Source: a virus (Duplodnaviria > Heunggongvirae > Uroviricota > Caudoviricetes). Taken from it: a stretch of DNA of 18,705 nt. The notes beneath the pieces were generated by a model. That model did not search any database. It saw only the letters and a program-made list of their open reading frames with translations, and was not told the DNA's origin. The stretch is from the IMG/VR virus record IMGVR_UViG_2778261458_000001, positions 1 to 18,705 of that record. One strand, written 5' to 3'. The translations under genes were made by a program, and so were the position numbers. This document shows, in pieces, positions 486-700 of the stretch; positions within the stretch are counted from its first letter, which is position 1, and every line of letters begins with the position of its first letter.

Positions 486-700
486 GAAACAGTCTCACAA
501 CAAACACAGGGTCCGACATGAAAGTGCCCGAAAATGACTTTTTTAGGCGTTTTCATGTCGGACCTTTTACGGATTCGATATTAGAAAAAACAAATAGTTA
601 TGTTCGAGAAGTACCGACATGATTTTCCCCGGAAAATTTTCATAAATAGCGAAAACCCGCGCGCCTTCCGCCCCGTGGCAGGCCACCCCACCGGAAGGAC
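486..700 (-). other. cos site (cosN-cosB region) of a lambda-like packaging system
   Basis: Reverse complement of about 628-661 reads CGCGGGTTTTCGCTATTTATGAAAATTTTCCGG, identical to my recollection of the lambda left end just inside cosN. The 12-nt cosN-equivalent at 662-673 reads GGGCGGAAGGCG (lambda: GGGCGGCGACCT). Lies about 190 nt upstream of the Nu1-like start, as in lambda. Confidence 0.6.

Follow-up and report, generated by a model that had tools for sequence, protein, structure and literature searches.

The cos sites described to date that lie closest to the one analyzed here are those of phage lambda, phage 21 and the known natural cosN variants. The latter were reportedly the subject of a dedicated survey by Vahanian et al. 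in 2017, which covered 12 variants. In lambda, mutations at bp 7–12 of the cohesive end have a minimal phenotype, whereas changes in the left half are severe; G2C cuts the yield about 10-fold, and the symmetric change C11G is without effect (Feiss laboratory; PMC4669245 section 14). Tolerance at bp 7–12 is attributed to the anchoring of TerL via TerS at cosB, which leaves bottom-strand nicking with little dependence on sequence (PMC4669245). The natural variants N15, phiD326 and Gifsy-1 differ from lambda only at bp 7–12 and conserve cosQ, the left half of cosN and the CG pairs that flank the nicks (PMC4669245 section 14). The distance of the R3 box from the left end (bp 50–65) is also critical (PMC9026076).

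The window, that is, the whole 18,705-nt stretch of DNA analyzed here, holds an E. coli lambdoid prophage in reverse orientation; on the minus strand the lysis genes come first, followed by cos and then terS. The original prediction recognized a lambda-like cos with an altered 12-nt cohesive end and left two alternatives, a lineage with a different end or a mutated site that would block packaging. The comparisons presented below indicate that the lambda-family cos site is very probably intact and that its cosN is a natural allele. The variant end is real but ordinary, a widespread natural allele.

Results

The Cohesive End and Its Register

Read on the plus strand, 640–700 is a lambda-type cos region in reverse complement, and the minus strand across the site reads GGGTCCTTCCGGTGGGGTGGCCTGCCACG / GGGCGGAAGGCG / CGCGGGTTTTCGCTATTTATGAAAATTTTCCGGGGAAAATC. 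Positions 662–673 (minus strand) hold GGGCGGAAGGCG, where lambda, 21 and phi80 have GGGCGGCGACCT. The lambda reference record opens with GGGCGGCGACCT, the 12-mer that the original prediction had given for lambda. Five differences from lambda, at bp 7, 8, 9, 10 and 12, give the hexamer AAGGCG at bp 7–12 in place of the canonical CGACCT, and with five mismatches the window is not a member of the lambda/21/phi80 end allele. It retains C11, the partner of the critical G2, as well as both CG flanks. Within the window GGGCGGAAGGCG occurs only once, against a chance expectation of 0.01.

The match to lambda adjacent to the 12-mer, noticed from the start as 33 nt long, is exact: window 661–629 (minus strand), CGCGGGTTTTCGCTATTTATGAAAATTTTCCGG, equals lambda bp 13–45 at 33/33 nt. 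When aligned with MAFFT to phage 21 (M81255, with annotated cos) and phage IdasGreatGrand, the 12-mers share the same columns without a gap, so a shift by a few bases, which had been raised as a possible source of the difference, is ruled out.

The 16-bp core of the variant is symmetric at 8 positions and that of lambda at 10. The predicted stability of the matched-end duplex is −18.6 kcal/mol for the variant and −19.0 kcal/mol for lambda. Among phage records searched with the 12-mer, none starts at GGGCGGAAGGCG, and the sole match in a full-text literature search for the 12-mer was an unrelated plant paper. A contig scan with ACGGGGCGGNNNNNVCGCGG gave only GC-rich chance matches (Actinomycetes and similar), the pattern being too unspecific. 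An origin of AAGGCG by inversion of the canonical hexamer was also considered and dropped: the reverse complement AGGTCG agrees at 4/6 positions, within chance (about 4%).

Organization of the cos Site

The sub-sites were mapped onto the window from the annotation of phage 21 (M81255), and the elements map without indels. In window coordinates, from cosQ toward terS, they are as follows.

696..702, minus strand: cosQ (GGGTCCT), the element for termination of packaging, located upstream of the top-strand nick at a distance of 29 nt, where lambda and 21 have 30 nt
660..675, minus strand: cosN core, 16 bp, CG / GGGCGGAAGGCG / CG, from the in-register alignment to the annotated 21 and lambda ends
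between 674 and 673, minus strand: top-strand nick, inferred by homology
662..673, minus strand: predicted 12-nt 5′ cohesive end GGGCGGAAGGCG, by homology to the lambda and 21 ends
between 662 and 661, minus strand: bottom-strand nick, inferred by homology
629..661, minus strand: cosN-proximal spacer, equal to lambda bp 13–45 and containing most of the I2 IHF-like site
630..644, minus strand: homologue of the I2 IHF site, 13/15 identical to phage 21
609..624, minus strand: R3 box of a 21-type cosB, 15/16 identical to phage 21, at bp 50–65 from the left end
588..602, minus strand: homologue of the I1 IHF site, 13/15, from the phage 21 annotation
551..566, minus strand: R2 box, 16/16 identical to phage 21
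508..523, minus strand: R1 box, 14/16 identical to phage 21
1..485, minus strand: TerS gene, first 161 codons from the ATG at 485, running off the left end of the window

The hallmarks of a lambda-family cos site are present: the left half GGGCGG, CG at both nick positions and cosQ upstream, then R3 at bp 50–65, I1, R2 and R1, followed by terS. Beyond the 33 lambda-identical nucleotides, cosB is of the 21 type and not of the lambda type, and the distance from cosN to R3 is exactly that of phage 21. The window and phage 21 share the order and spacing of I2, R3, I1, R2 and R1, and bp 1–6 of the end. They differ in the cohesive end at bp 7–10 and 12, in the spacer between cosQ and cosN, which is unrelated in sequence and 1 bp shorter in the window, and in the lambda-type TerS C terminus and TerL of the window lineage. 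With lambda, the window shares bp 13–45, cosQ, bp 1–6, the CG flanks, amino acids 73–161 of TerS and, in the closest genomes, TerL, whereas its R boxes and TerS DNA-binding domain are of 21 specificity and 5/12 end bases are different. The description of the site as lambda-like thus holds for the 33 nt, the TerS C terminus and TerL but not for cosB or the TerS N terminus, which are 21-type.

The shorter cosQ spacing was examined as a possible defect and rejected. A spacing of 29 nt, with an identical left flank, GGGTCCT[C/T]CCGGTGGGGTGGCCTGCC, is found in the isolated phage mEp460 and at many other cos sites. Because isolated phages, mEp460 among them, have this class of left flank, the missing base pair does not amount to a defect. 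The mEp460-class sites differ from the window in other respects, with another cosB and a TerL only about 24% identical to gpA.

Terminase and Packaging Specificity

The small terminase noted in the original prediction is indeed encoded here, at 1..485, as far as codon 161. The protein is a chimera, with amino acids 1–72 similar to phage 21 (63/72 identical) and amino acids 73–161 nearly identical to lambda (88/89). In this, TerS is a natural counterpart of the laboratory lambda–21 hybrids that it resembles. TerL is encoded just beyond the window; in H10407 and 90-9280, the closest genomes, full-length TerS homologues are followed by a TerL that is identical to lambda gpA at 639/641 residues (99.7%). 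The specificity pairs therefore match at both contacts, the 21-type cosB with the 21-type N terminus of TerS and the lambda-type C terminus of TerS with the lambda-type TerL. With both 21-type R boxes and a 21-type TerS DNA-binding domain present, the site would have the packaging specificity of phage 21.

By analogy with the described systems, the N-terminal domain of TerS would bind the 21-type R3, R2 and R1 boxes together with IHF, and its lambda-type C terminus would anchor the lambda-type TerL. TerL would then introduce two nicks, one in the bottom strand separating bp 12 from bp 13 and one in the top strand immediately 5′ of bp 1, yielding 12-nt 5′ overhangs that read GGGCGGAAGGCG. Placement of the bottom-strand nick would be set by the cosB anchor and not by sequence, so bp 7–12 could change with function kept. 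Because both chromosome ends derive from the same cos, the new ends would be mutually complementary and cyclization would proceed normally.

The nuclease itself is not distinctive for the allele. Downstream of AAGGCG, at the 10/10 sites with enough downstream DNA, TerL is 98.4%–99.7% identical to lambda gpA, and the range is the same for sites with the canonical hexamer (canonical median 99.2%). For the GAGCGG and CAGCGG alleles, the accompanying TerL mostly shows only about 24% identity to gpA. An essentially identical nuclease thus occurs in nature, without co-variation, with two ends that differ at 5/12 bases.

Variation at cosN in Natural Sites

In a census of 128 cos sites, identified with anchors outside cosN, bp −3 to +5 are invariant (128/128), bp 6 is nearly so, and variation falls at bp 7–12. 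The window agrees with the census at bp −3 to +5 and in the CG flanks, positions that are invariant or almost invariant there. The census includes loci fetched with allele-biased patterns, which biases the allele frequencies, while the pattern of conservation stands. The sequence around the top-strand nick, ACG|GGGCG, is invariant across the 128 sites.

The described variants follow the same distribution. The ends of N15 and Gifsy-1 were re-derived as GGGCGGCGTCCG and GGGCGGCAGCGT; N15 and phiD326 are changed at bp 9 and 12, and Gifsy-1 at bp 8, 9 and 11. The end of mEp213/LLS, GGGCGGCGCGCT, is a further published natural cosN variant, and that of mEp460, GGGCGGGAGCGG, also has five differences from lambda. 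The window resembles the published variants in that variation is confined to bp 6/7–12, with the left half, the CG flanks and cosQ kept; it differs from them in having more substitutions (5), yet it belongs with an essentially lambda-identical TerL. The five changes are confined to positions published as free to vary, although the published tolerance data are mostly for single or double changes and the window has five together. The allele follows an already published rule for a well-understood site.

The homology that places the cohesive end bears on whether a functional site might be nicked elsewhere, giving an end of a length or sequence other than the 12-mer. The nick positions come from homology, the core has the lower symmetry (8 versus 10) and cosQ is 1 bp closer, all of which would fit such a site. 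However, cosN and R3 are spaced exactly as in phage 21 (bp 50–65), and it is this spacing that sets the bottom-strand nick; the sequence at the top-strand nick does not vary, and TerL is about 99.7% identical to lambda gpA. Nicking at other positions is thus very unlikely, and the 12-mer is taken as the predicted end in what follows.

Distribution of the Allele

To locate the allele, a 34-mer was designed so that megablast seeds only where the variant hexamer is present. The AAGGCG allele was found in 155 genomes out of the 5,426 complete ones of E. coli, with 166 places in all, of which 16 were on plasmid records; the equivalent canonical query returned 4,120 genomes and 7,457 places, 19 on plasmids. 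AAGGCG thus accounts for 16/35 plasmid-borne lambda-type cos places as against 150/7,588 chromosomal ones. This enrichment on plasmids is striking and may be clonal in origin. The plasmid copies are N15-like (Ravinvirus) phage-plasmids with a lambda-type terminase and head genes, for example NZ_CP126957.1 (L360) and CP025712.1 (L004). In a sample of IMG/VR contigs in which the hexamer was left free (n = 121), 113 sites carried CGACCT, 7 AAGGCG and 1 CGACCG. The AAGGCG contexts comprise at least five left flanks and at least three cosB types.

The exact 12-mer is present in two phage records, PhiR46_1 (PhiR46.1, PV340565) and the Ravinvirus phage-plasmid YDC107_1 (CP025712). In PMC13190303, PhiR46.1 has an entry as an isolated temperate phage and is part of a panel employed in plaque assays. 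Both have the identical GGGCGGAAGGCG and a lambda-type TerL (99.4%–99.5%). In contrast to the window, which has a 21-type cosB and the mEp460-class left flank of 29 nt, their cosB and TerS are lambda-type and their 30-nt left flank is lambda-like. The original prediction had looked to functional lambdoid phages sharing this exact 12-mer as evidence against its concern, and PhiR46.1 is such a phage.

Separately, four IMG/VR contigs (L135, L171, L223 and L236) contain two to three cos-like sites each, consisting of cosQ, GGGCGG and a variable hexamer, within about 10 kb. The hexamers of these sites differ (GAGCGG, GAGCGT and GAGGGG), and the contigs might represent tandem cos-bearing satellites (PICI-like) beside prophages.

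Mosaicism around cosN

The cos site and its flanks, at about 629–975 in the window (loci L191, L233 and L001), form a three-piece mosaic. On the left side of cosN (−300 to −31), 269/270 positions agree with IMG/VR contigs that carry the hexamer CAGCGG, and the cosB and TerS of those contigs are only 81% and 76% like those of the window. To the right (bp 13–600, TerS included), the window is 98%–99% identical to IdasGreatGrand, which has the canonical hexamer and a left flank unrelated to that of the window. The hexamer of the window, AAGGCG, matches neither source of the flanks, and two mosaic junctions therefore bracket the variable hexamer.

It was also considered whether selection maintains the variant hexamer as a barrier to compatibility, in that phages, phage-plasmids or satellites whose ends differ would be unable to form viable hybrid chromosomes; alleles would then define exchange groups and not reflect neutral drift. 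Hybrid ends of lambda and the variant are predicted to pair by 6 bp only, at about −9.5 kcal/mol compared with −19.0 kcal/mol for matched ends, and the two-base mismatch between lambda and N15 ends already lowers the yield about 4-fold (PMC4669245). From these two values together, differing alleles may limit the viable products of heterologous packaging. The alleles are also discrete, with few intermediates, and the overrepresentation of AAGGCG on plasmids and the junctions on either side of the hexamer fit a barrier as well. Neutral drift together with clonal spread nevertheless accounts for the same data, and the plasmid enrichment may stem from a single successful phage-plasmid family. Selective maintenance is consequently held to be rather doubtful. 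It concerns persistence of the allele and is compatible with the site being an intact one that carries a natural allele.

Condition of the Prophage and Its Relatives

Over its first 4 kb, the window shows 99.5%–99.6% identity to ETEC prophages, among them those of H10407 and 90-9280. Over the whole window, the best match among complete E. coli genomes is CFSAN018748, at 97.1%, with none higher. Collinearity with H10407 throughout was considered and rejected, since the early region is a different mosaic with O-like and P-like genes instead. PHROG scans identified intact open reading frames for a repressor, a CII-like regulator, O-like and P-like replication genes, Ren, an HNH/DUF968 protein, RusA, a Q-like antiterminator, a DNA methyltransferase, two holins and an M15 endolysin. 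The head and tail (structural) genes fall outside the window.

A number of further features were observed in this region. Two tRNA genes lie at 3591–3664 and 3765–3837 (minus strand), between the DNA methyltransferase and the lysis cassette, and are annotated as tRNA-Arg and tRNA-Ile in relatives. An Rfam match to the sok antitoxin RNA at 8456–8630 (minus strand, 110.7 bits) marks a hok/sok-type toxin-antitoxin locus, and relatives have HokD annotated at the corresponding position. Between the M15 endolysin (2067–2450) and cos, the segment 1070–2066 (minus strand) has only open reading frames of unknown function, one of which, 1070–1513, matches phrog_1935. No Rz/Rz1-type spanin is annotated between endolysin and cos in relatives.

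The condition of the relatives bears directly on whether the variant end is a lesion in a decaying prophage, in which a mutated cosN could not be cut by terminase and packaging would be blocked. Clear degradation is seen in some copies of the lineage: the head region of H10407 contains an IS66 element between D and E, and CFSAN018748 has IS66 copies, a stop codon in the portal gene and frameshifts. Five substitutions among six adjacent bases also look drastic. On the other hand, identical 12-mers recur in 155 genomes, in unrelated flank contexts and in the plaque-forming phage PhiR46.1, and decay would not be expected to strike the tolerated half alone and spare cosQ, the R boxes, the CG flanks and bp −3 to +6. 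Strain 90-9280 has the same cos with a complete set of lambda-type head and tail genes, and both early and late genes within the window are intact. A lesion at cosN is hardly credible in the light of these observations. Among relatives that share this cos, the condition extends from intact to riddled with IS elements, so any defectiveness would be specific to the copy and unrelated to cosN.

In the head-gene region, ISCro1 (IS66 family) was found at L125 26253–28868 and L377 6619–12530, and its place differs between H10407 and CFSAN018748. The differing positions point to a structural module that was inactivated more than once, each time independently, with cos and terminase staying intact.

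Discussion

The occurrence of the allele in 155 genomes, in several contexts and in PhiR46.1 supports the first alternative of the original prediction, a lineage with a different cohesive end. The second, a mutated site that blocks packaging, finds no support, as the changes lie at tolerated positions and an essentially lambda-identical TerL adjoins the allele at all the sites compared. On the sequence evidence, the site in the window is almost certainly functional, and packaging competence may be predicted for this particular copy. A sticky end unlike that of lambda is no evidence of packaging failure, and that alarm was false; annotation pipelines and readers should accordingly not score such a difference as a defect. 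There is a practical side as well, in that phages with AAGGCG would not anneal to lambda ends, which matters for lambda sticky-end oligonucleotides and for cos-based packaging tools.

An enzyme that is 98.4%–99.7% identical to gpA and is found with two ends differing at 5/12 positions extends, as a small addition to terminase biology, the known tolerance of bottom-strand nicking. A broader proposal, speculative and improbable as it stands, is that the hexamers at bp 7–12 act as compatibility barcodes, with one lambda-type terminase serving at least two end alleles that are unable to cross-anneal. Lambdoid phages, N15-like phage-plasmids and cos-hijacking satellites would then be divided by their alleles according to which hybrid chromosomes are viable, and cosN would be a preferred mosaic junction. 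If this were true, mosaic junctions at cosN would arise by packaging initiated at one cos and terminated at another, and the window, in which three differently related pieces meet at the hexamer, would be the product of such packaging.
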